In this document: one piece after another, positions 566 to 46,599 of the stretch
How the letters are laid out: every line of letters starts with the position of its first letter
Numbering within the stretch: position 1 is the stretch's first letter
From: a virus
Taxonomy: Duplodnaviria; Caudoviricetes
IMG/VR virus record: IMGVR_UViG_3300047382_000771
Span: 64,001-128,000 of that record
Strand: one strand, 5' to 3'
Length of the DNA: 64,000 nt
Notes under the pieces: generated by a model
What the model saw: the letters and a program-made list of their open reading frames with translations, nothing else
Databases searched by the model: none
What the model was told of the DNA's origin: nothing
Translations under genes and position numbers: made by a program

Positions 566-575
566 ATTATTACAC
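566..575 (-). promoter_or_regulatory. GTGTAH motif before the clp gene
   Basis: GTGTAATAAT; hexamer 11 nt before ATG 558; GTG TAA is also the last codon and stop of dnaE. Confidence 0.65.
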
Positions 576-3146
576 AGAATCGTTCTTAAAGTCGGAAAGT
601 TTCATGTAGATCATTTCGTCAATGATCCTTATTCGATTTAAAAATAATGCATCTCCAGACCTATTTTTTTCCCCATAAACAACAACTATGTTCCCTTCTG
701 AGGGGACCTTATTATCCTTTAAATATTCTGTGCATTTTTTGAACCTAGCTGTATCTACTAATATACCATCGACATTCCCGACCTCATCTTCGAGTTCGAG
801 TTTGATGTAAAGATTACCATTTCTGGATTTTTCTTTTTTTGCAAATTTAACGACCAGTAAATATTTAGCAACAGTACCAGCTTCGCACTCTTTAAAAAAC
901 TTAGAGTCCTTTAACTCCGAGTGTGAACTAGAAAATACATCTTTTAATCTAGTCGAGTAACTGAACCCAAGTAAGCTGCGTTCGAAGTACCAATTGGCGA
1001 ATTTCTGGTTCTTACTGTTTTTGTAGTATATTTCTTTTTGTGGCAAGTATTTTTTCTTAATAGTTTCATATCTAGATTCTTTAATTAATGGCTTGCCATC
1101 GTCCCCTGAGTATTTAAAACCAGAAGTTTTTGCTGAATTAAATATTTCGAACACGTCTTTATCTTCTTTTTCATGTATTGATATGAAGTTTCTTTTCTCT
1201 CTGTCAGTAAGAATATTAAATAATTGAGCCTCTAGTACTTGTTTGGCCCTATCTTCGTTTTGAGAGTCACTAAGAGCGCCTGCCTGTATTAAGGATGACA
1301 ATGTGCCTATATTGAGACCAGAATGCTTAGCTGCTATGAATACTTCGAATTTATTAACAAACTTTTCTTCCTTGAACAACTGTATGGCATGTAAAGTTTT
1401 ATCGCTTATGCCCTTTATGCTAGACAAACCATATCTTATGTTTCCATCTTCAACACAATAATCAAAATCAGATTTAACTAAATTTGGTGGTAATAGTTTT
1501 ATGTCAAAATTTGGTAGCTCTTTGCTGATATTAGAGACTTCAAGCTGCGGATTTGGCTCAAAGTTTGTCATTTTTAATAACGCAAGAAAGAACTCTTGTG
1601 GATGATTAAATTTTAAATAAACAGTCCATGCCGCTAATGTAGCGTAACTGATAGAGTGGCTTTTATTAAATGAATAATTAGCACTATCTTCAGCCACCTT
1701 CCATAAAATATCACCAATAGTCTCTTCGAGATTTTGTTCTTCTATCTTATCTTCAATCTTGCTTTTCCACTCTGGCATTTTGTCTACCTTTTTCTTGCCT
1801 ACAATTCTTCTTAATTGTTCTGACTCGTCAAGGGTGAACCCTAATCTCACCGCCATCTTCATTAACTGCTCTTGGTATAATGGTATACCACCAGTATACG
1901 AGAGCTCTTCTTCAAAGAAATCATGAACTACCTGAGCCTCTCCAGACCTAATATAGTCAGAGTACTTATCAACAAAATCTAATGCCCCTGGCCTGGCTAA
2001 AGCTATAACAGCACTAAGCTCTTCAAGGCTTCTGGGTTTCACTTTTCTGCAAACAGAAAAATTAGTATGAGCCTCTATCTGAAATAAACCATGCGGAGAA
2101 TCTAGTTCAGAGAAAGGGTAATAGGTCTTGTCTTCATCTAGAGGTATCTTTGTTGGGTCAATACCTATTGAGTTGCAGGTGTTGTAAATTACACTTAACG
2201 TACGCAACCCAAGAATATCAAACTTAACCATAAGTTCTGACACCCAATTCATATCATAACCAGTGACAAGAGAGCCGTCATTAGTTTTTTGAACGGGACA
2301 TATGTCTTCGATTGCATTACAGGAAATAGCTATGCCAGACGGATGAACTCCTGAGTTTTTGTTTAAACCCTCAAGCTTCCTTGAAATGTCTACCACCCTC
2401 GTGTTATCTTCGGACCACTCCTTGAATTTAGTACTCTCCTCTAAGGATTTATCTATAGATGCTACCTTCCCAAAATTCTTGGGTATAAATGATGTAACAT
2501 GATTTATGTCTTGCTCTATATAATTACCTACTATTTTTCCACACTCCCTAATGCAGAGTTTGCTGCTCAAAGTATTCAATGTGAGAATTTTAGCAGTTCT
2601 ATTTGGGTAGCGATTTTCTATGTAAGAAACAACCCTGTCCCTATGTTCATAAGAAATATCATTATCAATATCAGCTAGTAAGCTTCCATCAAGATATGTT
2701 ACTCCATCTTTCTTGATCTTTTTTGCTCGACTCTCACTCACGAACCTCTCAAAAAATAAGTCATACTTAATAGGGTCAATCTTTGTGACACCAATAAAGA
2801 ATAAAACTAAAGAACCAGCGGCAGAACCACGACCTGGCCCAGTAGGTATATCATTTTCATGACAAAAATTTAATATGTCCCAATTCAGCAATATATAATC
2901 TATAAACCCTAATCTTTTTAAAATTGATAGCTCGCTAGATAGTCTGCCCTTGTACCCAAGTTTATCTTTTGATAAATCAATCCCTTTTAGTTTAGCTCCC
3001 GATTCACAGATCCTTTTTAGAAACATGAAATTAGATGCCCCGTCCTCCAAACCAACAGACTCGTACTGTTCTTTAGAGATGTTGATAGTGGGAAGGAGCA
3101 CTCCCGCAGGGATGCATTCTTCATAACTTGTGTAGGAATCAAACAT
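570..3146 (-). CDS. dnaE: DNA polymerase III alpha-type (C-family) core lacking the PHP domain
   Basis: Motifs GPGRGSAAGSLV, DIDND (catalytic), SGVHPSGI, KFDILGL, GIPLYQEQLM, YSFNKSHS, IRYGLSSIKG and a C-terminal OB fold; begins just after the position of PHP. Confidence 0.95.
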   Translation of the reverse strand: MFDSYTSYEECIPAGVLLPTINISKEQYESVGLEDGASNFMFLKRICESGAKLKGIDLSKDKLGYKGRLSSELSILKRLGFIDYILLNWDILNFCHENDIPTGPGRGSAAGSLVLFFIGVTKIDPIKYDLFFERFVSESRAKKIKKDGVTYLDGSLLADIDNDISYEHRDRVVSYIENRYPNRTAKILTLNTLSSKLCIRECGKIVGNYIEQDINHVTSFIPKNFGKVASIDKSLEESTKFKEWSEDNTRVVDISRKLEGLNKNSGVHPSGIAISCNAIEDICPVQKTNDGSLVTGYDMNWVSELMVKFDILGLRTLSVIYNTCNSIGIDPTKIPLDEDKTYYPFSELDSPHGLFQIEAHTNFSVCRKVKPRSLEELSAVIALARPGALDFVDKYSDYIRSGEAQVVHDFFEEELSYTGGIPLYQEQLMKMAVRLGFTLDESEQLRRIVGKKKVDKMPEWKSKIEDKIEEQNLEETIGDILWKVAEDSANYSFNKSHSISYATLAAWTVYLKFNHPQEFFLALLKMTNFEPNPQLEVSNISKELPNFDIKLLPPNLVKSDFDYCVEDGNIRYGLSSIKGISDKTLHAIQLFKEEKFVNKFEVFIAAKHSGLNIGTLSSLIQAGALSDSQNEDRAKQVLEAQLFNILTDREKRNFISIHEKEDKDVFEIFNSAKTSGFKYSGDDGKPLIKESRYETIKKKYLPQKEIYYKNSKNQKFANWYFERSLLGFSYSTRLKDVFSSSHSELKDSKFFKECEAGTVAKYLLVVKFAKKEKSRNGNLYIKLELEDEVGNVDGILVDTARFKKCTEYLKDNKVPSEGNIVVVYGEKNRSGDALFLNRIRIIDEMIYMKLSDFKNDSV

Positions 3147-3345
3147 TATTCTGTAAGGTGTTTTCTATTTCAAGTAAATCTGTATAAACTGCGTATACTT
3201 CATCTGGTCTCGTGCTCCAATATTCTGGAGGTTTTGATAAGAAAAATTTAATTAGATCAGCTAAGTGTTGGTTGGCTTTGTTCTTGAGTAATGTGTCTTT
3301 TAAGTATTGGTATGTAATAGTATTATTCATATTGAAATATTCCAA
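3139..3345 (-). CDS. Hypothetical protein
   Basis: 68-aa ORF overlapping its neighbours in the polymerase cluster. Confidence 0.6.
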   Translation of the reverse strand: MEYFNMNNTITYQYLKDTLLKNKANQHLADLIKFFLSKPPEYWSTRPDEVYAVYTDLLEIENTLQNNV

Positions 3346-4900: not shown

Positions 4901-4939
4901 CGCTAAACATCATAGCAATAAACAGGTTCGAAGTCAAGG

Positions 4940-6094: not shown

Positions 6095-6355
6095 TTATAA
6101 GTCCTCCTTTAATCCTCTTTTCTTTATTTTATTATTTTGATATGTACAAAAAGTAATCAAAACAAAATGCCTACCCATAACTTTTTTATGAGTAATAGAA
6201 TAATTGTAGTTTTTTAGGAAACGAGATAAATCAATTAAGTATTTATCTTGTACATATATTATGATTTTTTTTGGATTACCTTTGTCGTCAATATCTTGAG
6301 AGAACATGACATCGTCTGCATATTCATAGCAAATATTTTCTATCGTAGTATTCAT
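6095..6355 (-). CDS. Hypothetical protein
   Basis: 86-aa ORF preceded by the GTGTAH motif. Confidence 0.6.
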   Translation of the reverse strand: MNTTIENICYEYADDVMFSQDIDDKGNPKKIIIYVQDKYLIDLSRFLKNYNYSITHKKVMGRHFVLITFCTYQNNKIKKRGLKEDL

Positions 6356-6361
6356 TCATAA

Positions 6362-6371
6362 TAATGTACAC
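6362..6371 (-). promoter_or_regulatory. GTGTAH motif
   Basis: GTGTACATTA; 10 nt before ATG 6355. Confidence 0.6.
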
Positions 6372-6377
6372 TACAAA

Positions 6378-9984: not shown

Positions 9985-9994
9985 GTTTTATTTA

Positions 9995-10267: not shown

Positions 10268-10272
10268 AATAA

Positions 10273-10282
10273 TATATTACAC
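10273..10282 (-). promoter_or_regulatory. GTGTAH motif
   Basis: GTGTAATATA; 9 nt before ATG 10267; overlaps the Val-stop of the upstream gene. Confidence 0.65.
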
Positions 10283-10687
10283 ATCTATCCCTAAGGATTT
10301 TAATAAAGTTTTGGATAAATCGTCCTTGGGGTATACCTCTATGAACTTAATGTTGTTGAGTTTGCAATATTCTTCTTTACTATTGTCACGTCTAATTTGG
10401 CTAAGAAAATTTGACTTAGCTTTGCCGTGAAAAAATGGAGTATATTTTAAGTGTTGCTCTCCTTGGACTTCTATAGCTATTGAGTGACTGGCATTGTAAA
10501 AATCAAAGGACATTCTAGTGCCAACTACAGGCATTTCCTCAAAAACAAAATCTGAAGACCAGTACTTTTTTAGAAATTGTTTTACAAAGAATTGCCTTTT
10601 GCTTCTGCTTGGTTTTTCCCAATCAATTAAATATTTTTTTGGCTTACTTAATCTTTTACTGCCGCCTGTGAGAGTTTTAAAAATCAT
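10277..10687 (-). CDS. Small PD-(D/E)XK-type endonuclease (Vsr/DUF559-like)
   Basis: FEE..., FDFY, IAIEVQGEQH and RDxxKxxYCxxNNIKFIEV pattern. Confidence 0.75.
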   Translation of the reverse strand: MIFKTLTGGSKRLSKPKKYLIDWEKPSRSKRQFFVKQFLKKYWSSDFVFEEMPVVGTRMSFDFYNASHSIAIEVQGEQHLKYTPFFHGKAKSNFLSQIRRDNSKEEYCKLNNIKFIEVYPKDDLSKTLLKSLGIDV

Positions 10688-12127: not shown

Positions 12128-12133
12128 CCGACC

Positions 12134-12162
12134 ATAATACCAAAAGAGTTCGGTAAAGTCAA
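12134..12162 (-). promoter_or_regulatory. sigma70-type promoter for the replication operon, probably leaderless
   Basis: Minus strand reads TTGACT-N17-TATTAT, then 6 nt to the GTG at 12127. Confidence 0.75.
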
Positions 12163-12168
12163 GTATAA

Positions 12169-17552: not shown

Positions 17553-17562
17553 ATAGTTACAC
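17553..17562 (-). promoter_or_regulatory. GTGTAH motif
   Basis: GTGTAACTAT; 9 nt before ATG 17547. Confidence 0.65.
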
Positions 17563-18804: not shown

Positions 18805-18814
18805 TATATTACAC
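18805..18814 (-). promoter_or_regulatory. GTGTAH motif
   Basis: GTGTAATATA; 9 nt before ATG 18799; overlaps the Val-stop of the upstream gene. Confidence 0.65.
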
Positions 18815-19339
18815 TTTTATGGAAACAAATAGTTTAATTATTGAAGTTTTTTTAATCGAGTCAGAGTAAAACCATACCCAGGGATAACTGCAATGTATTG
18901 AATTTACTTCTTTTTCTGCATCACTTATAGATTGTTCTAAATGCCTTATACTTTTGTAATCTATATCTGATGTGTCTATTTTTAATTTTTCAGCTATAGA
19001 GATCAAATCATAGGATTTGTTTTCTTTTTTAGCTTGAACAGCTTCTTCTAGTAGGCCTCTAGTGGAGTCATCTTTAGTTATATCTGTATGGGTTTGTGTA
19101 GCTATTTTCCTAAAAATACTTTTAAGATTTTTTGGGAGAGGCTCTTTTTTTTGACCCTCTTCTTTTTTGAGGTTTTGAAAGGGGTCTTTTAAATTATTCT
19201 TAGAGCAATACTCGTGAACAGCAGAGCAGAATAAAGGGACGGATTGTTCGTAAATTTCTTTACAAAGCGAAAGCTCTTCTTTTATCTCTTTGCTTTTAAA
19301 CTTTAACCTTCTGATTAAAGTTTTTTTATACCCATCCAC
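18809..19339 (-). CDS. Protein with a J-domain-like segment (HPD replaced by HTD)
   Basis: LKSIFRKIATQTHTDITKD...LLEEAVQAKKE fits J-domain helices II-III; DNA reads CAT ACA GAT. Confidence 0.55.
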   Translation of the reverse strand: MDGYKKTLIRRLKFKSKEIKEELSLCKEIYEQSVPLFCSAVHEYCSKNNLKDPFQNLKKEEGQKKEPLPKNLKSIFRKIATQTHTDITKDDSTRGLLEEAVQAKKENKSYDLISIAEKLKIDTSDIDYKSIRHLEQSISDAEKEVNSIHCSYPWVWFYSDSIKKTSIIKLFVSIKV

Positions 19340-20366: not shown

Positions 20367-20395
20367 ATTATATAACGAAACTAAACTAATGTCAA
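20367..20395 (-). promoter_or_regulatory. Consensus sigma70 promoter of nrdB
   Basis: Minus strand reads TTGACA-N17-TATAAT, then 9 nt to ATG. Confidence 0.85.
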
Positions 20396-21159: not shown

Positions 21160-21169
21160 AATAATACAC
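21160..21169 (-). promoter_or_regulatory. GTGTAH motif
   Basis: GTGTATTATT; 8 nt before ATG 21155. Confidence 0.55.
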
Positions 21170-21179: not shown

Positions 21180-21581
21180 CTAGCAGTTCGATTTTATAAT
21201 TTTTACTATCTTGCTATCTATTAAATATGGGAACCTATCTAGCTCTTCAACTTTAAACCAACCGTACTCTGTATGCTCTTCATTCAGGTTAACATTAGGT
21301 ATTTCATCGAAGTTGTATTTGAATATGTCAAAAGTATTTGAACCCTTATATATAGTTTTGCAGAAAACAAGGTCTATTGGAGATATTTTTATGCCCGTTT
21401 CTTCGTCCAGTTCTCTGCTGGCACAAACCCTAGGAGACTCTGCAGGAGGCTCTCTTGAGCCTGCAAATATACTCCAGTAACCACTGTAGGCGATCTCTGG
21501 CCCTTCTATGCGTCTAGCCAAAAGGACTAAGGAATTATTATATATAATACAACCAGCAGCACTCACTGCCAATATGTACAC
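21180..21581 (-). CDS. Nudix hydrolase
   Basis: Nudix box variant GSREPPAESPRVCASRELDEETGI and LNEEHTEYGW; the real start may be GTG 21566. Confidence 0.9.
   Translation of the reverse strand: MYILAVSAAGCIIYNNSLVLLARRIEGPEIAYSGYWSIFAGSREPPAESPRVCASRELDEETGIKISPIDLVFCKTIYKGSNTFDIFKYNFDEIPNVNLNEEHTEYGWFKVEELDRFPYLIDSKIVKIIKSNC
21572..21581 (-). promoter_or_regulatory. GTGTAH motif
   Basis: GTGTACATAT; 9 nt before the in-frame GTG 21566. Confidence 0.55.
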
Positions 21582-24089: not shown

Positions 24090-24099
24090 TAATTTACAC
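24090..24099 (-). promoter_or_regulatory. GTGTAH motif
   Basis: GTGTAAATTA; 9 nt before the nrdA ATG. Confidence 0.65.
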
Positions 24100-24186: not shown

Positions 24187-25218
24187 TCAAGAGTTGTTAA
24201 CAAAATCATTTTGGTACATCTTTTCTACTAATTTATTAAAGTCTGTTTTTCTTGTCCAACCTAACTCTGTTTCAGCCATAGAGGGGTCTCCGCAAAGCTT
24301 GTGTACTTCTGCTGGTCTATAAAAATTGGGGTCAACTTCGAAAAATAATTTACCGTCGAGGGTGAAGTATTTTTCATTAACACCTTCTCCTCTTGAGATA
24401 AATGGTATATCTGCGTAAGCGAGACTAAGGTTTAAGAATTCTCTGACAGAGTGCATCTCCCCGCTGGCTAGAATATAATTTTTTGGCGAATCTTGGTTTA
24501 ACATTAACCATACACCCTCCATAAAATCTTCTGCGTCACTCCAATCTCTTTTAGCTTCTATGTTGCCTAATTTAAGTAGGGGCAGTTCGTCTGCATTTGA
24601 GTTTATTGCTTTTTTAAGTTTAGCTATTGAGTGGGAGATCTTCCTGGTGACAAAATCTAAACCCCTCCTAGATCCCTCATGGTTGAAGAGCCAGCCTTGA
24701 ACGGCATATAAACCGTAAGATTCTTTATAAACTCTAACTATGTGCCTCGCTGCACATTTAGCTGCCCCGTAAGGAGATTGGGGGTTTAATGGATGAGACT
24801 CGTTTTGAGGTGTGTACTCTACATCTCCAAACTCTTCAGATGATCCAGCATTATAAAAATTACAATGTGGGGAAAACCTTCTTATGGACTCCAAGATATG
24901 CAGGACTGAGTTTGAGTCTGTCTCCCATGTTTGTATGGGGTAATCCCAGCTCCCAGCAACGAATGACTGTGCTGCAAAGTTAATAAAGTAATCTGGCTGT
25001 ATGTCAATAATAACATCCCTGATACTATGAGCATCGTTTAGGTCCATGTTTAGTAATTGAAATCTGGGCTCTTTCTCTAGATGGAGGATATTACCATGGT
25101 TTTTGACACTCAACCTTCTCGCTGTTCCGTATATCATGTGCTTAGTATTGGCTAGAAGGTAATCAACCATGTGGCTTCCGTCTTGACCTGTAACTCCTGT
25201 GACTATAATTTTTTTCAT
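24187..25218 (-). CDS. gmd: GDP-mannose 4,6-dehydratase
   Basis: GVTGQDG, AAQSFV, SSEEFG, SPYGAAK, FNHEG.RRG..FVTRKI and RDW; start placed at MKKII (ATGA overlap with GT11). Confidence 0.95.
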   Translation of the reverse strand: MKKIIVTGVTGQDGSHMVDYLLANTKHMIYGTARRLSVKNHGNILHLEKEPRFQLLNMDLNDAHSIRDVIIDIQPDYFINFAAQSFVAGSWDYPIQTWETDSNSVLHILESIRRFSPHCNFYNAGSSEEFGDVEYTPQNESHPLNPQSPYGAAKCAARHIVRVYKESYGLYAVQGWLFNHEGSRRGLDFVTRKISHSIAKLKKAINSNADELPLLKLGNIEAKRDWSDAEDFMEGVWLMLNQDSPKNYILASGEMHSVREFLNLSLAYADIPFISRGEGVNEKYFTLDGKLFFEVDPNFYRPAEVHKLCGDPSMAETELGWTRKTDFNKLVEKMYQNDFVNNS

Positions 25219-26003
25219 AACATTTGTATCCATTCTTCGGGGATTATATCTCGATAACCAGGACCTTCTGGGCCAAACCATTTAGATGGTGCGATAATTT
25301 TCTTTTGTTTATTTTGGTTTAACCATGCAGCCCACCAGCTAAAACTACTATTTGCGATAATATTGTTTTCACAGCAACTCATGATTTTGAGGTCCTCTAG
25401 ATTGGAGTTACCTTCCATGAATATCATGTTCGGATATTTTAGTGAATTCTTGCACCATTGTATATCATCTGAGAATACGAATATATTACCACTTGGGTTA
25501 ATTTCTTCAAGGGCTTTATTATAATAATCAGCACTTAAATTTAAGTGGTATTTAGGAGCATTTAAATAATCCGTGCGTCTTATATGTATGGAGCAAGATC
25601 CAAGGAAGTCGAAGTTGGTAAACTTAGGGTTTTCTCCAAAATCTAATAAATTAATAATACCCTCTCTATGATGTTTGAAATATTTCTCCGATTGCCAGAA
25701 GCCGTCAAGCAATAGATTGCCATCAAGGGTGCTCAGATCTAGGTGATTGTAGAAATTTTCATCGCTAATTTTGTAAACTTTTTTGCTAAAAAAGTCATCC
25801 ATGATTTGGCCTTCGAATCTATCTATTTTTATTTTCTCAAAGTTTTGAAGGTCAAACGTCCTTGGAGTACAACCCTTGCAACCACCTCTAAAAAAAGAAT
25901 CATCTAGGTATAGGTCTAGTCCGTAATCTAAACTTAATGAATAACCGTAGGCCCATTGAAAGATTTGATTAGCTAGTCCACCTTGTATTTTGGATACTAT
26001 CAT
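25215..26003 (-). CDS. Alpha-1,2-fucosyltransferase (GT11)
   Basis: GGLANQIFQ, GFWQSEKYF, IHIRRTDY, VFSDDIQW and IIANSSFSWWAAWL; start placed at MIVSK (ATGA overlap). Confidence 0.92.
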   Translation of the reverse strand: MIVSKIQGGLANQIFQWAYGYSLSLDYGLDLYLDDSFFRGGCKGCTPRTFDLQNFEKIKIDRFEGQIMDDFFSKKVYKISDENFYNHLDLSTLDGNLLLDGFWQSEKYFKHHREGIINLLDFGENPKFTNFDFLGSCSIHIRRTDYLNAPKYHLNLSADYYNKALEEINPSGNIFVFSDDIQWCKNSLKYPNMIFMEGNSNLEDLKIMSCCENNIIANSSFSWWAAWLNQNKQKKIIAPSKWFGPEGPGYRDIIPEEWIQML

Positions 26004-26602
26004 ATTTCCACATACCAATTATGGTGACTTAAGACATTAACACCCAGACCCTTAGAGTTGAAGAAACGGTCTACACATTGTGAAACATGAGGGAAGTTAG
26101 GGTGATTGTAATCGTGCCCTGAAAGTATGCCTCCTGACCTTATTTTCGGAAACCAATTTTCTATATCTTGCTTGACAAATTTTTCAAAATGATTCCCGTC
26201 TATGTATACGAAATCCAAAGACGCATCTTCGAATAGTTCGTAGCATTCATTGGATAATTTCCTAATAAGCTCGAATCTATCTCCGTAGAAAGACATTCTA
26301 CCCTTGACCATGAGGTGTAGATCATCTTGCTTCTCTTGTTCTAAATTCCTCGAATCCCCTTTGTATTCGGAATAATTTAAATAAGGATCTATGCCGTAAA
26401 GTTTTGTGATATTAGTTTTATCTAAAATACTAATAGAATGACCACCATAAGCTACACCAACCTCTACCCCGATCTCATAATTATTGTCATTAATTATATT
26501 GGGTATATCGTTATGCCACTCTTTCCATTCCGAAAGATTTTCAGAAGGATATTTTGCAGTATATTTAACTTCGATTTCTTTTTGTTGTTTTTTACTTATC
26601 AT
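26000..26602 (-). CDS. Class I SAM methyltransferase (Methyltransf_24-like)
   Basis: GVEVGVAYG, LYGIDPY, LDFVYIDGNH and GGILSGHDY. Confidence 0.88.
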   Translation of the reverse strand: MISKKQQKEIEVKYTAKYPSENLSEWKEWHNDIPNIINDNNYEIGVEVGVAYGGHSISILDKTNITKLYGIDPYLNYSEYKGDSRNLEQEKQDDLHLMVKGRMSFYGDRFELIRKLSNECYELFEDASLDFVYIDGNHFEKFVKQDIENWFPKIRSGGILSGHDYNHPNFPHVSQCVDRFFNSKGLGVNVLSHHNWYVEI

Positions 26603-26608
26603 GAGAGG

Positions 26609-27340
26609 TTAAAACATAGACCTTAATTGGGCGGATATTTTCTGAGACTCAAAAGAGTTCTGGGTGTACCAACTGTCTTTAGAGGTTATGTCGTGATTAT
26701 ACTTTAGGCCTGGAACTATATTTAGCTTGAAGTTTTTTTCATTCCTAAAACATAAACATAACACATATAGCACATCAACACCGAGTGGGTTTATTGGGTT
26801 TTTACAAGATTCAATACAAGAGGTGTAAGTGTGTTTGTTGACTAGAAAATTGCCTGTATTAATTAAACACTGGTCAATTGAATCTTTGGAATAAATTAGA
26901 CCCCTGAAATCATCAATATCTAAAGTCCTGCCTGAGTAACGGGAATAATCGAGAGAGGGCGAATTACATTTAGCTAAGCTTGGTAGATAAAAAGTTTTAC
27001 TATCCAATTCACCTGGTAATGAATCTAAATAATCAGTACCGATAATATTGTCAGAGTCGAGTAGAACCACCCAATCATTTGAGGCAAGATCTATAGCTTT
27101 ATATTTATTTAGGAAGGCTCCTAGGTTTTCTGTATTCCTGTGTATTTTTAGCTTTTTAGATCCTATACATTGCACTTGGTCAGATAGGTCATTGAAAATA
27201 CTTGGCTTGGAGTGATCATCTAAAATAATAATTTCATCAACCCTGTCATCGTTTACAACGTTGTGGAAAGATCTAATTGTTTCACTAGACCTATTGTAGG
27301 ATGTGATAGCTAGGGTAATTTTATTTAACATATAATGCAT
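26609..27340 (-). CDS. GT-A fold glycosyltransferase (GT2-like)
   Basis: ITSYNR, IIILDDHS, NLGAFLNK and LLDSDN. Confidence 0.8.
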   Translation of the reverse strand: MHYMLNKITLAITSYNRSSETIRSFHNVVNDDRVDEIIILDDHSKPSIFNDLSDQVQCIGSKKLKIHRNTENLGAFLNKYKAIDLASNDWVVLLDSDNIIGTDYLDSLPGELDSKTFYLPSLAKCNSPSLDYSRYSGRTLDIDDFRGLIYSKDSIDQCLINTGNFLVNKHTYTSCIESCKNPINPLGVDVLYVLCLCFRNEKNFKLNIVPGLKYNHDITSKDSWYTQNSFESQKISAQLRSMF

Positions 27341-27941
27341 CCCCCCATTCGTACTCTGTCATTTTAGTTTCCTTTCTGGAGAAACCAAACTGGCTTAGGT
27401 AGTAGTCAATTTCATCTATCAGTGCACAGTTTTTATATAAATGTGCGGTGTTGACTTCTGTATAAATAAGGTCTATTGAATTTATTAAATTACCCGCACC
27501 CTTGAGAGCTAAGAGTTCCGCCCCTTGGATATCTATATTTAAAAAGTTATAAGAACTTATGTCAATTGAGTTTTCTTTAATTAAAGAATCGAGACGCTTT
27601 GTCTTCACTTTTATCGTCTCAGTAACATGTATGTGTGGGTGATGTATAGTATGTTTGCCTAAATCAAGTATTGAGGAAGACTCCCCGTTGTTTGTTATAT
27701 GGAAATCTAACTCTTGGTTATCAGTATCTGTAATCGCATAATTAAAGACACACTCAGGGCTTGGTGTATTGTTTGTTTTGCAAATAGATTTGTATTTGGA
27801 AGGGTTAGCCTCAATCCATATGGTGTTTTCTAAACCATGAAGAAGGTAGTCATTCCTTTCCTCCATAAGGTGAGCACCTATATGTATAATACCTTTTGGA
27901 GTACCATACTTAGATACTATATCTTTGAATTTAATTAACAT
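27321..27941 (-). CDS. FkbM-family methyltransferase
   Basis: IIHIGAH, IEANP, SSSILD, LNIDIQGAELLALKG and EVN. Confidence 0.88.
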   Translation of the reverse strand: MLIKFKDIVSKYGTPKGIIHIGAHLMEERNDYLLHGLENTIWIEANPSKYKSICKTNNTPSPECVFNYAITDTDNQELDFHITNNGESSSILDLGKHTIHHPHIHVTETIKVKTKRLDSLIKENSIDISSYNFLNIDIQGAELLALKGAGNLINSIDLIYTEVNTAHLYKNCALIDEIDYYLSQFGFSRKETKMTEYEWGDALYVK

Positions 27942-28591
27942 TATAAGATTTTACTTAGGTCGTGCTTCTTAGTATTGAAGTTACTTTCTGAATGAACTCT
28001 ATGAAAGACGAGGCTGATTGGTATATTATGGAAAAGGTAGCCTTTTTTCAATAGCTTTAACCAAAAGTCAAAATCCTCTATTCCATCTAAAGACTCATCC
28101 CAGCCCCCAATTTCAAGTGCGTGTTGTTTTTTGAACACCGCACTAGAATTTGCTGTCTGGTTATCTCCAGAAAGGGATTTGTTTTTTATTTTACTATGCT
28201 CCATAGATAAGTCTGGTTGACCGCATGGTTTATTGTTTTCATCTATGTAAGTTATGAAGGAGCCAATCACATCGAATTTATCAATGTACTTTACCTGCTC
28301 TTTTAGTTTATCTTGATGCCATAAATCGTCGTCATCTTGGATAGCACAAAAATCATAATTAGACTCTTTAATTAATTTATTAAGAGTTTTGGCTTTCCCC
28401 TTGTCGTTAGCATAATCAAAAACCCTAATCCTAGTATCACTAAATGAATTAACTAAATCTTTTGAGTTATCAGTCGTTCCGTTGAACCCTACTAATAATT
28501 CCCAGTCCGTGAAATTTTGATTTAATATAGATTCGATACTTGATTTTATATATTTTTCTCCATTATATGTCGCTAGTAGAATAGAAATCAT
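27941..28591 (-). CDS. Glycosyltransferase family 2
   Basis: ISILLATYNGEKYI, QDDDD and EDFDFW. Confidence 0.9.
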   Translation of the reverse strand: MISILLATYNGEKYIKSSIESILNQNFTDWELLVGFNGTTDNSKDLVNSFSDTRIRVFDYANDKGKAKTLNKLIKESNYDFCAIQDDDDLWHQDKLKEQVKYIDKFDVIGSFITYIDENNKPCGQPDLSMEHSKIKNKSLSGDNQTANSSAVFKKQHALEIGGWDESLDGIEDFDFWLKLLKKGYLFHNIPISLVFHRVHSESNFNTKKHDLSKIL

Positions 28592-28593
28592 TA

Positions 28594-29286
28594 CTAAGTC
28601 CTTAGTTCTTTGTGGTTTTTGTCGAGGGCTATTAATCTTGGATGAAACGGAGGTTTAAGACTTTCTCCATAACAGTAACCTGGGTCTAGGATTTTGGTTG
28701 GAGGGTTATCTATCATGTATCTATTAAGGTGACTTTCGTCGTGCCAAATAGCTATGTATTTTTTAGTTAAATCTTTATTAATGTTGCTTGATATTCGATT
28801 GGCCATTCTTAGGTAGGCAGATGAGCTGCCGCCATTAAAACCCCCAGCAAAATACTCCATTGGTTCTGAATCAGATACAAATGCCGAAGAGTCTTTATTA
28901 GTCTCAGGTGTGCCGCGTGTACCGTAGTAACCAGGATGTTGTGTGGCTACTAAATGGCTTAATATTTCCTCACCGACATGATCTCTAAAAATCATATCAG
29001 CATCGCAATAAAATAAATAATCGAATTTAGATAGTTGTTCTTTATTTTTATCAAAAATGTGATACCTACCTAAAGTCATCCAGGGCCAAGGCTCATGCTT
29101 CGTTAAGATAAAGTTCACAACTCTATCAGTATTTTTTGTATCGCATATAGTATCAGTAAAAATACAATACTCTACATCTATATTGTTTTGTTTTAAAAAA
29201 TATTTGTCCGCACTATGTATTAGGGGTTGTATAAATTTTTGGTATTTATTTGTAGCAATAATTAATAAGCCAACCTTAACACCCAT
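28594..29286 (-). CDS. Glycosyltransferase family 6 (ABO/alpha-1,3-Gal(NAc)T family)
   Basis: IIATNKY, YCDAD (DxD), YFAGGFNGG and WHDESHLNRY. Confidence 0.92.
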   Translation of the reverse strand: MGVKVGLLIIATNKYQKFIQPLIHSADKYFLKQNNIDVEYCIFTDTICDTKNTDRVVNFILTKHEPWPWMTLGRYHIFDKNKEQLSKFDYLFYCDADMIFRDHVGEEILSHLVATQHPGYYGTRGTPETNKDSSAFVSDSEPMEYFAGGFNGGSSSAYLRMANRISSNINKDLTKKYIAIWHDESHLNRYMIDNPPTKILDPGYCYGESLKPPFHPRLIALDKNHKELRT

Positions 29287-29926
29287 AGTTAACCACCCTT
29301 CCTTCTATATCACTAAAATCATTAGCTTGCACCCCGCATCTTTTTAATAAATACCATTTATTTTCAATAGATTGAAAAGATTTCCAAGTTTGGTCTATAG
29401 CATGTAGGTTAGGGTCTTCTCCGTTTTTTAAGGCATCTATTGATGCTTGTATTTTAGGTACGATCTTTTCACAAAAAGAAAGCCTAATAACATACGCAGA
29501 TGTAGTTTGAACATTATCGGATTTTAAAACTAAGCCTGATGAATCGATAGGTTCGCCTTTGGTCACATCATTATAGGATAGTTGGCATATATTAAAGTCT
29601 GGGTAACGTTCTATGAAATAATTCCACCTAGAAAGTAATTCACTAGTTTCTATCACTGGTATAAAATCATCCTCTAGAACAATAATTGTTTTATAGTCTT
29701 TCTCTATAGCGTCTTTGTATATATTTAAGTGGGATTGAGCGCAACCCACACTACGTAGGGGTAGTGTGGGTTGCTTTGATGTATCTATGGCTGGATATCG
29801 AGTAAAAAATCCCTCCTTAAAATTAAAAAAAGGTAGAACTAATTTGAGGGTGTGGCGATTCCTGTCCTCCCTTTTGTCTAGGTTTAAATAATAACAGTGA
29901 TCAATTTCATTCATAATTACAAGCAA
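29276..29926 (-). CDS. Glycosyltransferase family 25
   Basis: YLNLDKREDR, GCAQSH, IVLEDD, TTSAYVI and AIDQ. Confidence 0.88.
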   Translation of the reverse strand: MLVIMNEIDHCYYLNLDKREDRNRHTLKLVLPFFNFKEGFFTRYPAIDTSKQPTLPLRSVGCAQSHLNIYKDAIEKDYKTIIVLEDDFIPVIETSELLSRWNYFIERYPDFNICQLSYNDVTKGEPIDSSGLVLKSDNVQTTSAYVIRLSFCEKIVPKIQASIDALKNGEDPNLHAIDQTWKSFQSIENKWYLLKRCGVQANDFSDIEGRVVNYGC

Positions 29927-30623
29927 TGCCTACGCACATATCTTCGCACCCTCCCATGAGATTTTTACAGTCTTCGAACAAATCTTTTTGTTTAATGATT
30001 TTACTTACATATCTTTTACTTAAACAGTATCCACCGCCAGCCCAGTAATGATCTGGGAGTCCACTTAGGGAGTGGTTTGATATGAATATTTCTGGTAGTA
30101 CAAATAGTTTTTTAGATGAAGCCCAGTTCCTGAAGCCTTCAATCGTGCTTCCAATTATGGGTGTGAACCCACCGTAATCTTCAAACATAGTTTCATCGTG
30201 AAAACATTTCTTGAAATTATCGAAAGAAAATAAAGGGCTTGTTTGATTGTGTAGATTGTCTATGATTCTGCAGTCTATTTTAAGCAAGAAGTCAAATTCA
30301 AATATAGTTGAACAACAAGATAGCATTTTGAATGTTTTAATCGATAGGTTATCGTAAGACTCCTCGGTATTTAACCTTAAAACTTTAGTACTTGCGTCAT
30401 AAAGGAAGTCATTTTTATCAAGGGATGGATCTGCATAATAAGAAATTATTGTTATATTATCTTTTGACTCGCAATACTTATACCAATCAGATTTCTTTAT
30501 TTTATCTACTGAGCCAATATCTTTCTCGCAAGAATTTATACATATTAGTATTTCACTTGTGGATAAAATAGACATCACTTCTTTCCTCCTCGTACTCTTT
30601 ATACTTACTACACACAGGGTCAC
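29907..30623 (-). CDS. GT31-like galactosyltransferase
   Basis: ESYDNLSIKT, FLLKID, WAGGGYCLS and CEDMCVG. Confidence 0.75.
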   Translation of the reverse strand: MTLCVVSIKSTRRKEVMSILSTSEILICINSCEKDIGSVDKIKKSDWYKYCESKDNITIISYYADPSLDKNDFLYDASTKVLRLNTEESYDNLSIKTFKMLSCCSTIFEFDFLLKIDCRIIDNLHNQTSPLFSFDNFKKCFHDETMFEDYGGFTPIIGSTIEGFRNWASSKKLFVLPEIFISNHSLSGLPDHYWAGGGYCLSKRYVSKIIKQKDLFEDCKNLMGGCEDMCVGIACNYE

Positions 30624-31305
30624 CCATTACAAATTCCTTCTCAGATAAAACTGACCTAAGCAAATATTGGCATATCCACATGTCGGCATTAAACTCTGGC
30701 TCACCCATTTCCTCCCTCACCTCCTTGAATTTAGAATAAAACATGAGCATATCATCATAACTTCCGCCCACTACACCCATATTAATTAAATCCCAATCAT
30801 GGTAGTTTAACATAAACTTAAACCTATCATCCCAACCGAAGTGATCATGAACTTTGATATAAGGGAAGGAATCTAGGGGTATAGAATCCTTACAGCAAAA
30901 ATAAGACATACTAGGCATCTCAGAGATAAGGGTAGATGGATCCCTGACAACCTTCACATCTGAACCATCCGTATGAAAGACCACATCTGGTTTATCTTTT
31001 AGATTTAGCAAAAAATCATTAAAGCAGAAAAACCTCCAGTCATTATTGGAGTAGGTGCCAACATCTACTTTTTCGAAAGAAACTTGATCAGAGCTATATT
31101 CCTGCACGAATTCATCTGATAATTCGTCGTGAAAAACCACACCATTAATATCGCTGGAGTGAATTGAATCATACCAACCTTTAATATAATTAATATCTTG
31201 TTGCATAACCCTACCATCTGGACCCCTACCCACAACTGCGTTATCCGATGGGTCATTAGGGTGAGGCTTTGACGAAAAGTAAGAGGTTAGAATTAAGGTT
31301 TTCAT
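30553..31305 (-). CDS. Putative GT-A fold glycosyltransferase
   Basis: RFFCFNDFL, FHTDGSDV and INMGVVGG; first gene of the leftward glycan operon. Confidence 0.55.
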   Translation of the reverse strand: MKTLILTSYFSSKPHPNDPSDNAVVGRGPDGRVMQQDINYIKGWYDSIHSSDINGVVFHDELSDEFVQEYSSDQVSFEKVDVGTYSNNDWRFFCFNDFLLNLKDKPDVVFHTDGSDVKVVRDPSTLISEMPSMSYFCCKDSIPLDSFPYIKVHDHFGWDDRFKFMLNYHDWDLINMGVVGGSYDDMLMFYSKFKEVREEMGEPEFNADMWICQYLLRSVLSEKEFVMGDPVCSKYKEYEEERSDVYFIHK

Positions 31306-31312
31306 TTTTTAC

Positions 31313-31341
31313 TTGACATTTTGCTAAATTATTGTTATAAT
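31313..31341 (+). promoter_or_regulatory. Consensus sigma70 promoter of the rightward sigma-factor operon
   Basis: TTGACA-N17-TATAAT with an extended TG. Confidence 0.85.
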
Positions 31342-31345
31342 AGTT

Positions 31346-31448
31346 TTTCCAAAACTGGTTTTGGAAATATAAATCGTTAATCTTAGATATATTTCTAACG
31401 TTAACCTTAAATATAATGTTGACATAACTATAGATTATATGTTAACAT
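31346..31448. repeat. Three consecutive inverted repeats in the divergent control region
   Basis: TTTCCAAAAC-TG-GTTTTGGAAA (31346-31367); GTTAA-N2-TTAGA-N6-TCTAA-N2-TTAAC (31376-31405); ATGTTGACATA-N11-TATGTTAACAT (31416-31448). Confidence 0.8.
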
Positions 31449-31461
31449 AGTCATTTTTCAA
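31434..31461 (-). promoter_or_regulatory. Possible sigma70 promoter of the leftward glycan operon
   Basis: Minus strand reads TTGAAA-N16-TATAAT; its transcript would overlap the rightward one. Confidence 0.45.
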
Positions 31462-31465
31462 ATAT

Positions 31466-32035
31466 ATGGAGCAAAAAGATGATCAAGAGTTGGTATCCAA
31501 CCTTAAAGTTGGAAGGGATGTGAATGAAAGTTTATTTCATTTAGTCGAAAAGCATAGTGGCATATTTATAAATATGGTAAACCAGTACATGAATAAACAG
31601 TGTAGGTCTGAATTCATAAATGACAAGGAATACTATATTTATCAAGCTGCACTAAAATATGATTCAAGTAGGAATACAAAATTTTCAACATACCTAGGGA
31701 GTGAAACGAAGTGGATGTGCCTAAACACATACAACCGCTCGAAGAAAAAACATGAGGTTGATATTGATTATATAGAAAACCTAGGAGACAATTCCCAGCA
31801 ATACCATCAGATAATCAAAAGAGATACCCAGAATAAAATCTTAGAATTAGCTAACAGTAATCCAGACAAAAGAGTTCATAAAATTTTTCAATTAAGATAT
31901 AGTGGAGGCAATAAGAATAAAGTTATGCCATGGAGCGAGGTTTGCTCAAAAATAGGCCTAAGTGTGCAAGGCTGCATTAATGTACACGATCAAGCTTTAA
32001 CAAAAATAAAACAAGAACTGAAAGGCGAAATATAA
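31466..32035 (+). CDS. Phage sigma70-family factor (regions 2 and 4 only)
   Basis: AALKYDSSRNTKFSTY (region 2) and IFQLRY...WSEVCSKIGLS...QALTKIK (region 4 HTH). Confidence 0.85.
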   Translation: MEQKDDQELVSNLKVGRDVNESLFHLVEKHSGIFINMVNQYMNKQCRSEFINDKEYYIYQAALKYDSSRNTKFSTYLGSETKWMCLNTYNRSKKKHEVDIDYIENLGDNSQQYHQIIKRDTQNKILELANSNPDKRVHKIFQLRYSGGNKNKVMPWSEVCSKIGLSVQGCINVHDQALTKIKQELKGEI

Positions 32036-32037
32036 TT

Positions 32038-44100: not shown

Positions 44101-46573
44101 CAGGAACATATGTAACCTCTACTTCGTCCCCTGGGTATATAAAAAATAATTGATTTATTTGAAATGTAACCAATGCTTCATCTACTAAGGGATTCGTTAT
44201 TATATGTTTTACTGGATATTCTTCTTCTGGTCTTACGTCTCCAATATCTCCTAATGAGTCTAATGAAATAAAAACTGGGTCATCCGATACAGCGGATGTG
44301 TCTTCGTTGTAAAAAACTACCCCAGGATTTTCTATAGTAATTTCTTTCCATAAGTTACTATTCGTTTCGGGATCTGGATCTATGGCTGTAAAAATGGTGG
44401 GAAATTCTTCGGCAACAGTTTCTAAAAACCCTCTTCCGTTTAATTCTATTTTCTCGAAATAAACAACCCCTTGCTGAGCTTGATCACTTAAAGATACTAT
44501 AGTTGAATTTTCATCACTTAAGTCTCCCTCTGGGATAGCTGTTATTGTTTTATAAACAGACGTATTATTAAAGTAAACAACATCATTCACTGCAAAAGGT
44601 TTAGCTGGCCTAAATTGCTTAAACCTTGTTGCTGCTTCTGGGCCAGCCCTAAAATAACCAGAACCTACTAGATCTAAATCCTGATTATTAGGTATACCAT
44701 CACCATCATCGTCATCCATAGGATATTGGCCCATATATTCAGGCTCTTCAAAAACCACGGTATTCGCATCGTAAGCCATATTGTATGTAAAAACTTGAAT
44801 ACCATCCCCAGGATTGTCTGGATCTTCTTTAAATATTCCTCTAGCCTCAAATAACCTTGTTCCCTTTTTAACTATTGGGAGCGGGTCAAATTGTCCAACA
44901 ACATAATTAGACGCAGGACTATACTCAGTATCGGTGGCTCTTAATGTTTTATACCTAACCTCTGTAGTTCCATTAAAAAATGTAACTATTGTGCCCTTGG
45001 GATAAAAAGGTGTAGATTTATTAAAATCTTTAAAATTAGTACCCTGGAACTTAGCCGCATTAACTTCATCTAATATTCTAGGCCCAAAAAGTTTTGCGTT
45101 TATTGGTTTTGTTTCCCCTATAAACTGGTAAGGCTTTTCTAACAAAGATTGATCGTTTGCTCCAATCTCTCCTTTTGTATTCCTAGCTACATCAATATCA
45201 AACTGTAATAGATTATAACTTTCTTGTACAGTTGTTTCGTCTATATATTTCTCTTCTTTTACTGGTAGGTCATTAAGTAAAACAGCCTTAAGGTAACTAT
45301 CCGAACCATCTCCAGGATTACTGTCTTTCGCATCTGTAAAAATTAAATCATTACCATCGTCATCAGAGAATCCTTGAATTGGTCCTTCGCATATTAAATC
45401 TACTATTGTAGCTATCGCTGAAGACTCGAATTTATACCAACCTAAACCATTCCTTTTACTTCCATTCTTGTATCTTCTTCCAACACAAATAACATTTCCT
45501 AGGTTAGAGGATTGAACATTAGTTGGGTCATCTACAAGTTGAGCATTCCTGAAATTTATCGGATAAAATATTCTTTCTGAAGAATCGTTAATTCTTTTGG
45601 GTTCGCTCTGCAGCATAGTGAAAGGAGCTAAATGTAAATCAGCCTCTTTAACTGTAGCTATTCCTTCTTGTGGAGTTGGTCCCCAATCCCCATTGTAACT
45701 ACTATAATTTTGAAGGAAATATTCTGGCACCCCTTTGTTATAAATAGTTTTATAATACAATGTGCCCGCACTTAAAAAACCCTTACCAAGTTTTTGCTTT
45801 TCAATAGCTTCCTCCCCTGTGTATGATACATCTGCTCCGTACATTCCATCATTAGATCCAAAACCTGTAGCAGGGTCCCTAGATTTAAGAGCCTTAAATA
45901 CTATACTTTCTATACCCATTTCTGATGGCCCGTCAGCGATAGAGGAAAAAGCACTAGATAATAGCGGGCCAGGATCTTCTCCTAATTGCTCAATTAATAA
46001 CTGTCTGTATTTATTATATAAAGGTATAAGGTGGTATGCTCCATTTTCTAATTTATATATTTTACCTAAATCAGCATCATATTCATAATTATTAATTGAA
46101 TTTGATACAACCTTAGAGCCCACTTTCATTTTACCGTAACCAAGTGGTACATTACTACCTTGTTCTGTTACATTCTCCACACCCCTATAAATATAAGATT
46201 TGGTTTGAGCTTGTAAAACTCTAGTATCTCTCTCTTTCTTCCCTAGCATTTTATTCTGAATCCATCCGCTAAGGAAACTTGTACCAAAAGACATAGCCAT
46301 TCCCATAACCATTCCAGCACCTTGAGCTACAGGAGATATAATAATATCTTCTTTTGTATTTTTATCTATTTCTTCTTGGCGGAAATACTCATTAGAGTCT
46401 TTCTTCTTAAAAGAGTACCTAACTCCATCCATCTCTTTAGATTGCAGGTATTGTATAAAACCATCAGTATTTGCTTCGATAGCCGATATAGCTTCTAGGG
46501 GAGACCCCACATCTAGTTCCCACTTTTTCCCAAAGCGTTTGCCTAGTTTTCCATATAAGTATACCTTTTTCAT
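41168..46573 (-). CDS. Fused lambda gpI-gpJ-like tail tip / host-specificity protein with inserted C-type lectin, CBM-like and Ca-binding segments
   Basis: gpI: VYLYGKLGKRFG...EAISAI and QGSNVPLGYG. gpJ: VDLICEGPIQG, WTDNPAWCLYD, RYKMNAV and GVTSKSQAQR. Confidence 0.9.
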   Translation of the reverse strand: MKKVYLYGKLGKRFGKKWELDVGSPLEAISAIEANTDGFIQYLQSKEMDGVRYSFKKKDSNEYFRQEEIDKNTKEDIIISPVAQGAGMVMGMAMSFGTSFLSGWIQNKMLGKKERDTRVLQAQTKSYIYRGVENVTEQGSNVPLGYGKMKVGSKVVSNSINNYEYDADLGKIYKLENGAYHLIPLYNKYRQLLIEQLGEDPGPLLSSAFSSIADGPSEMGIESIVFKALKSRDPATGFGSNDGMYGADVSYTGEEAIEKQKLGKGFLSAGTLYYKTIYNKGVPEYFLQNYSSYNGDWGPTPQEGIATVKEADLHLAPFTMLQSEPKRINDSSERIFYPINFRNAQLVDDPTNVQSSNLGNVICVGRRYKNGSKRNGLGWYKFESSAIATIVDLICEGPIQGFSDDDGNDLIFTDAKDSNPGDGSDSYLKAVLLNDLPVKEEKYIDETTVQESYNLLQFDIDVARNTKGEIGANDQSLLEKPYQFIGETKPINAKLFGPRILDEVNAAKFQGTNFKDFNKSTPFYPKGTIVTFFNGTTEVRYKTLRATDTEYSPASNYVVGQFDPLPIVKKGTRLFEARGIFKEDPDNPGDGIQVFTYNMAYDANTVVFEEPEYMGQYPMDDDDGDGIPNNQDLDLVGSGYFRAGPEAATRFKQFRPAKPFAVNDVVYFNNTSVYKTITAIPEGDLSDENSTIVSLSDQAQQGVVYFEKIELNGRGFLETVAEEFPTIFTAIDPDPETNSNLWKEITIENPGVVFYNEDTSAVSDDPVFISLDSLGDIGDVRPEEEYPVKHIITNPLVDEALVTFQINQLFFIYPGDEVEVTYVPGATLFAVIGAITGAGYAADLMAESDEPFDLGAFLTSVIWGGVVGLIFGIILEKNSEFKIGTKIENSGETWPNRVQVRIHYGNEGETLYETDVSFFGTCTGGYMKDIKIYLPPNPLGRPRIIKAFKITRERNVVREGESAARYKDDVALANITEISTIKTNYPNSVVIGTRVSAKEVPQQLRRNYNLKLKKVKVPNNYDPVLKTYGQAWNGQFSDELVWTDNPAWCLYDLISNNVYGLGKFGMEEEFIDKWTFYKVAKFCDELVPTGYSSTYPRRNFKTVGSARILMEGQFLTKEQFGQEFKHIQKNIALFWEENGYKKRALRKIVSVTGDETIGRYYVVLDRGIGNVMEGTCAAEIYYPVIEHRYKMNAVLSQPSNAFKLINEIADIFRAYTYWGGGKINFYQDVPTNSIMLFTNNMVSSEGFQYSNTPRSSRTNSVKVKYLDQYNRYRPKIAFAENREKIVENGLYEESINALGVTSKSQAQRTAEFLVQGKNLETEIVTFNTAHPGSYLRPGDVIDILDNKKTVGRFAGKVLNIDVSGDGKVAYLDIDFPVRTIVDSFDNRTHKKIKLYNISGYNTLETLNQKSLYGDAITDEEIDSIRIGQIGEYTIGSITNNDTRVQVINNPYEHISGKFTFVTAMQDARLRGGDVASIANEVDQQFVGDVLPKDDNELAWIGGYYRETPPPEKFVWVNPQGCTDDEIDFYNWGVGYPKVGLTIARDPLEDEFGNTESDIGRDRIASLEAQEGVETDSPSYPKPLVSESMEIIVEDPDLPSGYNFICVSGSSDFEDHGDWVTHDKNILKSYILERKTDDALLKLHDIEGTTFVIEDELNLATTKQYKVLNIIEEGDAIYKIEAMEYNSGKFGTIEDNATLPVPRSPIVMNTNFTPPPENIYIEMLDEDEELGLKYGLRIFWNEVSAARLYRVQVFHSKQLIKTLELGNKNINRDDLTKQISYDFRDTSIEEGKSYYVRIEAVP

Positions 46574-46589
46574 CCTTTTTCCTAAAATA

Positions 46590-46599
46590 GGTATTACAC
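46590..46599 (-). promoter_or_regulatory. GTGTAH motif
   Basis: GTGTAATACC directly after the K stop; 20 nt before the I-J ATG. Confidence 0.55.

Follow-up and report, generated by a model that had tools for sequence, protein, structure and literature searches.

A GTGTA(A/T) element close to start codons of an uncultured marine phage is a probable one-piece promoter for near-leaderless mRNAs

A recurrent hexamer, GTGTAH (where H is A, C or T), stands shortly before start codons in bases 64001–128000 of one viral contig (IMG/VR record IMGVR_UViG_3300047382_000771; 200,094 bp, 36% G+C), a stretch of 64,000 nucleotides (nt) that we refer to as the window. Is this hexamer a promoter, a signal for translation, or something else? 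An initial annotation, made from the letters of the window, had proposed a compact promoter consisting of a −10 element only, which would give near-leaderless mRNA and be read by a phage sigma factor encoded at 31466. We find that GTGTA(A/T) is probably a one-piece promoter that is read with the help of a phage-made sigma factor and yields near-leaderless mRNA. The proposal of a compact promoter is supported by positional statistics, footprinting, a promoter swap among relatives, divergent starts and the partition of the genome. Coordinates below refer to the window unless given as genome positions.

All nine hexamers of the initial annotation are present on the minus strand, and the distances from hexamer to start codon are 11, 10, 9, 9, 9, 8, 9, 9 and 20 nt, as it had claimed. 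The first, GTGTAA at 570–575, lies 11 nt before the ATG at 558 of a ClpA/B-like ATPase gene that leaves the window, and also supplies the final codon and the stop (GTG TAA) of the DnaE-like gene at 570–3146. Two other copies of GTGTAA likewise form the Val codon and stop of the open reading frame (ORF) upstream: that at 10277–10282 ends ORF 10277–10687 and precedes by 9 nt the ATG at 10267 of an ORF of 90 amino acids (aa), and that at 18809–18814 ends ORF 18809–19339, 9 nt before the ATG at 18799 of a 144-aa ORF. GTGTAC at 6366–6371 is 10 nt from the ATG at 6355 of an 86-aa ORF. The same 9-nt spacing separates GTGTAA at 17557–17562 from the ATG at 17547 of a 1792-aa protein, and GTGTAA at 24094–24099 from the ATG at 24084 of the ribonucleotide reductase large subunit gene. 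GTGTAT at 21164–21169 stands 8 nt before an in-frame ATG at 21155, in an ORF that ends at 20850. The weakest of the nine is GTGTAC at 21576–21581, because its start codon is uncertain: an in-frame GTG at 21566 is 9 nt away, and an in-frame TTG at 21572 only 3 nt. The last, GTGTAA at 46594–46599, precedes by 20 nt the ATG at 46573 of a tail fibre J-like protein of 1801 aa, and the leader between them has a Shine-Dalgarno sequence of AGGA type. Shine-Dalgarno-like sequences are indeed missing at most short-spacing sites, and several long-spacing sites have one.

Over the whole window GTGTAH shows no excess, with 62 copies compared with 72.8 ± 8.5 in shuffled sequences; the signal is purely positional and strand-specific. 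For genome-wide counts we used a crude set of 220 ORFs from the whole 200,094-bp genome. In the 30 nt upstream of these genes, GTGTAA emerged de novo as the most enriched hexamer (18 occurrences, 0.66 expected). GTGTA is found 7–14 nt before the start codon in 20 of the 220 genes, compared with 1.18 ± 0.97 in 300 dinucleotide shuffles (maximum 4); among rearrangements of its letters without overlap with the motif, the most frequent occurs 5 times. The start codon downstream of these short-spacing copies is ATG in 18 of 20 cases. Intergenic sequence has 2.1 copies of GTGTA per kb, the sense strand of genes 0.25. Including about nine sites at longer spacing, GTGTA precedes about 30 genes in the genome. 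Within genes, comparison with synonymous shuffles gives z = −2 on the sense strand and z = −4.2 for the reverse complement, ranking the motif 35th among 987 pentamers; this avoidance is modest and too weak to lean on.

The motif is also conserved well beyond this genome. We assembled three sets of 80 related viral contigs by similarity to the reductase gene, to a sigma factor gene of the phage (sigma-C, described below) and to the portal-like protein, respectively, with some contigs shared between sets. Among 1622 ORFs of at least 100 aa in the reductase set (74–97% protein identity), GTGTA lies most often 9 nt (76 cases) or 10 nt (67 cases) before the start codon, a peak that permutations of the same letters do not show in this set. 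The peak at 9–10 nt recurs in the sigma-C and portal sets. Single-mismatch variants of GTGTA are not enriched at the 9–10-nt offset, and no GTGTA peak was seen in 492 kb of a bacterial genome bin that served as negative control. After removal of near-duplicates, 144 non-redundant sites were left, in which G-T-G-T-A is the only invariant part. The next base is A (66%) or T (27%), the ten bases after GTGTA(A/T) are nearly free of G, and all other columns hold at most 0.5 bit. A −35 element is absent: no column from −50 to −6 exceeds 0.16 bit in the 144 family sites, and 29 sites of this genome revealed none either, whether the spacing was held fixed or allowed to vary a little. The sequence AAAACTT, considered as an upstream element, occurred at four sites only and with inconsistent spacing, and was dropped. 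The motif and its spacing persist even in relatives whose flanking sequence has diverged completely. That three of the window's sites overlap GTG-TAA gene ends, and that the hexamer is not enriched window-wide, could suggest a by-product of chance or composition, arising for example from stop codons or A/T-rich junctions. With z of about 19 against shuffles, no such peak for same-letter permutations, and element and spacing kept across diverged flanks, we regard this explanation as extremely improbable.

Sites near structural genes and sites near replication genes differ somewhat. T at −3 is present in 66% of the former and 41% of the latter, and A follows the pentamer in 50% and 69%, respectively. 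These differences may hint at middle and late sub-classes; as the sites are phylogenetically non-independent, we do not claim two sub-classes.

Position alone cannot decide between a promoter and an RNA signal, because Shine-Dalgarno-like words share the offset of GTGTA. The initial annotation had offered a translation signal other than Shine-Dalgarno as its alternative, and this fits the position of the motif taken by itself: GTGTA could replace Shine-Dalgarno at the RNA level and be read by the ribosome or a phage factor, which would explain a spacing as sharp as 9–10 nt and the lack of Shine-Dalgarno sequences at most short-spacing sites. A second RNA-level possibility is that GTGTA marks a processing site, at which a phage or host endoribonuclease cuts polycistronic RNA into leaderless cistrons. 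Many sites do lie within operons and overlap the upstream stop codon, and sequence data cannot separate primary from processed 5′ ends.

Both possibilities are disfavoured by what is found upstream of the reductase large-subunit gene. Among 58 distinct relatives, 30 have GTGTA here (modal spacing 10 nt), 25 have a sigma70-type promoter (TTGACW-N16–18-TAnnnT, where W is A or T), 3 have neither and none has both. Since the two are mutually exclusive, they are alternatives for one job, and the motif thus interchanges with complete promoters. The sigma70-type promoters at this gene often carry TGn. The promoter class has been swapped repeatedly among the relatives, presumably along with the timing of expression.

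The locations of other sites point the same way. The 72 bp that separate two divergent genes (genome 170405 and 170478) harbour TTACAC-N9-GTGTAA, in which back-to-back motifs face one gene each, at a junction where promoters are required. The leaders of this pair (genome 170403–170480) have 23 and 29 nt, with no obvious Shine-Dalgarno sequence. GTGTA also heads the first gene of an inverted plus-strand block (genome 153887) and the first minus-strand gene beside an early block (genome 178628), and every upstream site is co-oriented with its gene. About nine sites are 19–33 nt from the start codon, several with a GGAGG or AGGA of their own; one of these long-spacing sites (genome 157916) follows a hairpin and T-run that by eye resembles a terminator. 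The reverse complement of GTGTA is under-represented in genes too, which an RNA signal would not cause, and GTGTA is not known to be complementary to the 3′ terminus that 16S rRNA usually has. A translation signal is therefore improbable in our judgement. Processing appears more doubtful still, given motifs at the starts of transcription units and at divergent junctions and the absence of conserved structure or of the extended context typical of a cleavage site.

A further argument against processing, and for a promoter, is that the motif is set apart along the genome from the early promoter class. Of 28 GTGTA genes, 26 are located in a central block (genome 31–179 kb), whereas 22 of 32 sigma70-type promoters are in the two arms, which are rich in small genes (Fisher p = 8.7e-7 for the partition).

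If GTGTA(A/T) is a promoter, where would its transcripts begin? Transcripts from −10-type promoters begin a fixed 6–9 nt downstream of the element. The host-type promoters of the same genome provide a reference. Of 25 perfect TTGACA-N16–18-TAnnnT promoters, 10 leave exactly 6 nt to the start codon, so mRNAs that start at the A of the ATG are apparently made already. In the early arms (genome 1–33000 and 179000–200094), many intergenic spacers of about 31 nt consist solely of TTGACA-N17-TAnnnT-N6-ATG, and early genes thus appear to be individually transcribed leaderless cistrons. Examples on the minus strand of the window are three host-type promoters: TTGACT-17-TATGAT (4909–4937) ends 8 nt before the ATG at 4900, TTGACT-17-TATTAT (12134–12162) ends 6 nt before the GTG at 12127, and TTGACA-17-TATAAT (20367–20395) ends 9 nt before the ATG at 20357 of the ribonucleotide reductase small subunit gene. 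If the TA of GTGTA is placed at −12/−11, the equivalent hexamer would end 5–6 nt before the ATG, matching this geometry. If instead the A of GTGTA is placed at −9, as in phage phiEco32 (see below), the leader would be 1–2 nt. Either alignment would give leaderless or near-leaderless messages. Leaderless genes have a −10-type element that ends 5–8 nt before the start codon, prefer ATG and lack a Shine-Dalgarno sequence; here, GTGTA plus 4 nt ends 5–6 nt before the start, ATG is preferred and a Shine-Dalgarno sequence is mostly missing. Judged by promoter geometry, leaderless mRNA would be a general design of this genome.

As candidate readers of the motif, the genome has three sigma70-family, ECF (extracytoplasmic function)-like ORFs that are not detectably similar to one another, and all three have a C-terminal sigma4-like part. 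Sigma-C, the factor at 31466 (31466–32035, plus strand, 189 aa), matches the ECF superfamily model TIGR02937 over its full length with E = 1.6e-8, below the curated cut-off. Sigma-A (genome 167977–168720, 247 aa) matches at E = 2.9e-11, just above this cut-off, and sigma-B (genome 19499–20053, 184 aa) at E = 3.4e-9, below it. Combined into a profile, 17 sigma-C orthologues match region 2 of RpoD, SigA, RpoS and FliA. In the AlphaFold model of sigma-C (predicted local distance difference test, pLDDT, 81), a disordered linker connects two helical domains, and the top 50 PDB matches listed for it are all cellular sigma factors. Searches with tblastn of the three sigmas against 50,697 GenBank phage records gave no match at E ≤ 0.01. 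We found no T7-type polymerase in the genome, in a search that control genomes could not validate.

The regulatory surroundings of the three genes differ. Ahead of sigma-C, on the plus strand (31313–31448), are two tandem sigma70-type promoters, TTGACA-17-TATAAT at 31313–31341 and TTGACA-18-TAACAT at 31419–31448, of which the second is conserved in relatives. Among 80 sigma-C relatives, about 28 have a conserved TTGACA-N17/18-TTAACAT promoter as in the window, and none has GTGTA ahead of sigma-C. The promoters lie in a divergent region of 160 bp (31306–31465), with a short inverted repeat (aaaactggttttgg) between them, and the predicted sigma-C leader has at least 17 nt, unlike that of most genes. 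Sigma-A is preceded in most of 47 relatives by GTGTA-N9–12-ATG about 1 kb upstream, two genes ahead, and in these 47 no sigma70-type promoter was found within 1.8 kb of it. It adjoins the terminase gene and is the best conserved of the three sigmas (52–70% in complete relatives); 689 protein clusters match it, some from Tara Oceans samples. Of three complete relatives, one gave no sigma-B, and in that one GTGTA still precedes the reductase gene. We found no motif that would mark a third, separate class of promoters.

From these patterns, the simplest scheme is that the host sigma drives sigma-C, which activates the GTGTA promoters, which in turn drive sigma-A. Thus, the assignment of the motif to the sigma at 31466 is plausible and favoured by regulatory logic, though with three ECF-like sigma genes in the genome the evidence does not single this one out. 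On that regulatory logic, we give sigma-C about an even chance of being the reader. Sigma-A, which would then sustain its own expression, is a possible reader at clearly lower probability, and for sigma-B this role seems unlikely.

In mechanistic terms, GTGTA(A/T) and the G-poor, A/T-rich stretch after it would be all that is recognised in a middle/late class of promoters specific to the phage. The enzyme that binds GTGTA(A/T) would be host core RNA polymerase with a phage-encoded ECF-like sigma, and the TA of the motif would replace −12/−11 of a −10 element, or −10/−9 by analogy with phiEco32. DNA would melt in the A/T-rich stretch, and transcription would start 0–2 nt ahead of the start codon. 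For the roughly 20 genes with short spacing, the mRNAs would then be leaderless or near-leaderless and need no Shine-Dalgarno sequence, while about nine further sites would combine the same element with an ordinary leader of 10–25 nt. The most likely cascade would run from host sigma70-type promoters through early sigma-C to the GTGTA promoters, including that of the sigma-A operon. More tentatively, one may imagine a full two-step sigma cascade, from a −35-independent sigma-C to sigma-A, in an abundant uncultured marine phage family in which nearly all primary transcripts, early and late alike, are leaderless.

Several observations weigh against a promoter that is read by a phage sigma. There are 70 sense-strand copies of GTGTA inside genes and their avoidance is modest, so the pentamer alone cannot suffice. 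Shine-Dalgarno-like pentamers are enriched at the very same 9–10-nt offset. Sigma-C is only 36–55% identical among relatives, and sigma-A is better conserved, whereas the motif does not vary within the family. ECF sigmas typically depend on a −35 element, and no such element is detectable here although all three sigmas have a sigma4-like domain. Finally, the available RNA evidence consists of assembled metatranscriptome contigs, which are uninformative about 5′ ends. A search of RNA runs with a 9-kb stretch gave no match. The capsid region is matched by 11 marine metatranscriptome runs, all stored as contigs. In four runs from four studies, contigs with 90–100% identity cover the presumed capsid operon (genome 156900–161200), with almost none over the portal gene upstream, and the contig ends do not fall at the start codon. 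Relatives of the phage are therefore present in RNA libraries, as transcripts or otherwise.

The poor fit between a missing −35 element and ECF sigmas leads to the most serious competing explanation, namely that GTGTA(A/T) is a promoter, read however by the host's primary sigma holoenzyme after re-targeting by a phage factor (as with T4 AsiA/MotA, or as proposed for the late TAGGGT promoters of Thermus phages), or by a host alternative sigma. The TA of GTGTA aligns with −12/−11 of host-type −10 hexamers in the same genome, and at one gene (genome 17995–18246) the sequence GTGTAACAT also acts as the −10 element that belongs to a TTGACT-N17 promoter. The authors of the work on Thermus phages described below, moreover, infer a phage factor that alters the specificity of the host polymerase. 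On the other hand, T at −7, a hallmark of primary sigma recognition, is present at only about 50% of GTGTA sites, and the TG abuts the TA, whereas extended −10 promoters have one base between them. The phage's three sigma genes would be left without a visible promoter class, and the one bacterial bin sampled lacks a GTGTA peak. We thus consider a host sigma rather unlikely as the reader, though less so than either RNA-level explanation. The more specific idea of an extended −10 element of the primary sigma (TGnTATAAT, with TG at −15/−14, one base from a hexamer that has A at −11 and T at −7) was rejected, given the abutting TG and TA and the T equivalent to −7 at only about half of the sites; the family does have true TGnTAnnnT promoters, and they do not resemble GTGTA sites.

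A phage-read GTGTA promoter can be compared with several known systems. ECF (group IV) sigmas such as SigW and SigX of B. subtilis use promoters with an AAC-type −35 and a CGT-type −10. The phage's sigmas resemble them in their TIGR02937 matches and their two-domain organization (sigma2 and sigma4, about 190–250 aa), and the TGTA core resembles a CGTA-type −10. They differ in that an AAC-type −35, 16–17 bp upstream, was not found in the 144 non-redundant sites. Late promoters of phage T4 have TATAAATA at −10 and no −35, and are read by gp55, a truncated sigma that has no sigma4 domain and depends on gp33 and the sliding clamp; late messages of T4 begin with a leader that carries a Shine-Dalgarno sequence. 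Common to both systems would be a single −10-like element, no −35, a phage-made sigma, and late or structural genes as targets. Unlike in T4, the motif here is not TATAAATA, all three sigmas have a sigma4-like part, and most messages would lack such a leader. The T4 protein gp55 is named in PMC5312081.

A closer parallel is coliphage phiEco32, whose middle and late promoters share a single consensus, AATGTA, centred at −11.5 and read by the distant two-domain sigma gp36 (PMC12276001, which cites Pavlova et al. 2012). A co-factor of this phage, gp79, displaces host sigma4 and stabilises the phage sigma. In both phages, a phage sigma moves, or here would move, the host core polymerase from early sigma70-type promoters to promoters with one short element near −11 and no strong −35 consensus. 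AATGTA and GTGTA have the core TGTA in common, and the sigma gene is early in phiEco32, as we propose for this phage. However, GTGTA(A/T) begins with an invariant G that lies two bases further upstream; none of the three sigmas gave a tblastn match among GenBank phages (E ≤ 0.01); and most promoters abut the start codon, in a 200-kb marine siphovirus-like phage with three sigmas.

For leaderless expression, the nearest precedents are two phages of Thermus, YS40 and Lalka27a, in which most transcripts have no leader and begin with the A or G of the start codon. Their temporal classes, with experimentally mapped starts, are distinguished by −10 elements (bioRxiv 10.64898/2026.04.20.719267, which cites Sevostyanova et al. 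2007). Leaderless transcripts, dense late promoters between collinear genes and opposed late promoters in divergent intergenic regions all have counterparts in the arrangement predicted here. The promoters of the Thermus phages are variants of TAnnnT (the late class being TAGGGT plus a C at −25) and are thought to be read by modified host holoenzyme. Their hosts are thermophiles from a phylum known for leaderless genes, and their starts were mapped, where ours are derived from sequence. In Deinococcus-Thermus hosts, a −10 motif adjacent to ORFs is a common pattern (PMC12340547). Leaderless genes of Deinococcus-Thermus and Actinobacteria are like those proposed here in having a −10 element a few bases before the ORF, where the −10 alone suffices for promoter activity, and unlike them in that the host element is TAnnnT, read by the primary sigma, whereas in this phage host-type and phage-specific elements share one geometry. 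Among the papers searched, none described a GTGTAA phage promoter. Phage sigmas with one-element promoters and mostly leaderless phages are both already documented, so no new mechanism is involved.

The phage is a member of a large uncultured marine group. IMG/VR and CheckV rate the 200,094-bp contig as complete, and about 90% of its genes are on the minus strand. The window encodes a DnaE-type polymerase, a single-stranded DNA-binding protein (SSB) and both ribonucleotide reductase subunits; besides the tail fibre J-like protein, a large terminase and a tape measure protein of 4218 aa are also encoded. A megablast search with 12 kb of the phage gave zero matches among cultured relatives, and identity between the DnaE-like gene and actinophage genes does not exceed 27%; judging from such comparisons, no GenBank phage is close to this genome. 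At least 600 IMG/VR contigs encode a relative of the portal-like protein.

The main use of the motif would be in annotating this group. A promoter word with fixed spacing provides a rule for choosing start codons and splits early from middle and late genes, and it could make transcription units readable in hundreds of contigs that come without a culture or a transcriptome. A sigma–promoter pair with a recognition element of 5 bp may also be orthogonal to host promoters, and is of a type sought for synthetic circuits. A group IV sigma that works independently of a −35 element would, if confirmed, be unusual in itself. Leaderless design at all promoter classes is in addition a clue to the host, which should be proficient in leaderless translation; if the design holds, then among surface-ocean bacteria either a host lineage or a ribosome state induced by the phage would have to be specialised for leaderless translation.

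One lead to a host comes from a 9.4-kb relative contig (CAZYUV010000119.1), whose terminase is 77% identical and which is binned in the 3.3-Mb bacterial genome bin (38% GC) that was used as control above. The primary sigma of this bin is closest to solved SigA structures of Firmicutes, and its genes show a small peak of −10 elements 5–6 nt before starts (12 of 341 ORFs). Because one binned phage contig is too weak a link, we do not name a host from it.

A few observations concern other features of the genome. Directly beside the divergent region upstream of sigma-C, nine or ten minus-strand genes of about 200–270 aa each form one run (25215–31305), at whose head (upstream of 31305) we recognised no promoter of either class. 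A 442-bp gap at about genome 30630–31070 has a tRNA-like 3′ end (…gggttcaactcccgcc…cca). In coding regions of the whole genome, pentamers that contain ACGT are the most depleted relative to synonymous-codon shuffles (z of about −8; ACGTT 37 vs 121), which suggests avoidance of a restriction site containing ACGT. TGATC and the Shine-Dalgarno-like words GAGGA, AGGAC and AAAGG are also depleted there.

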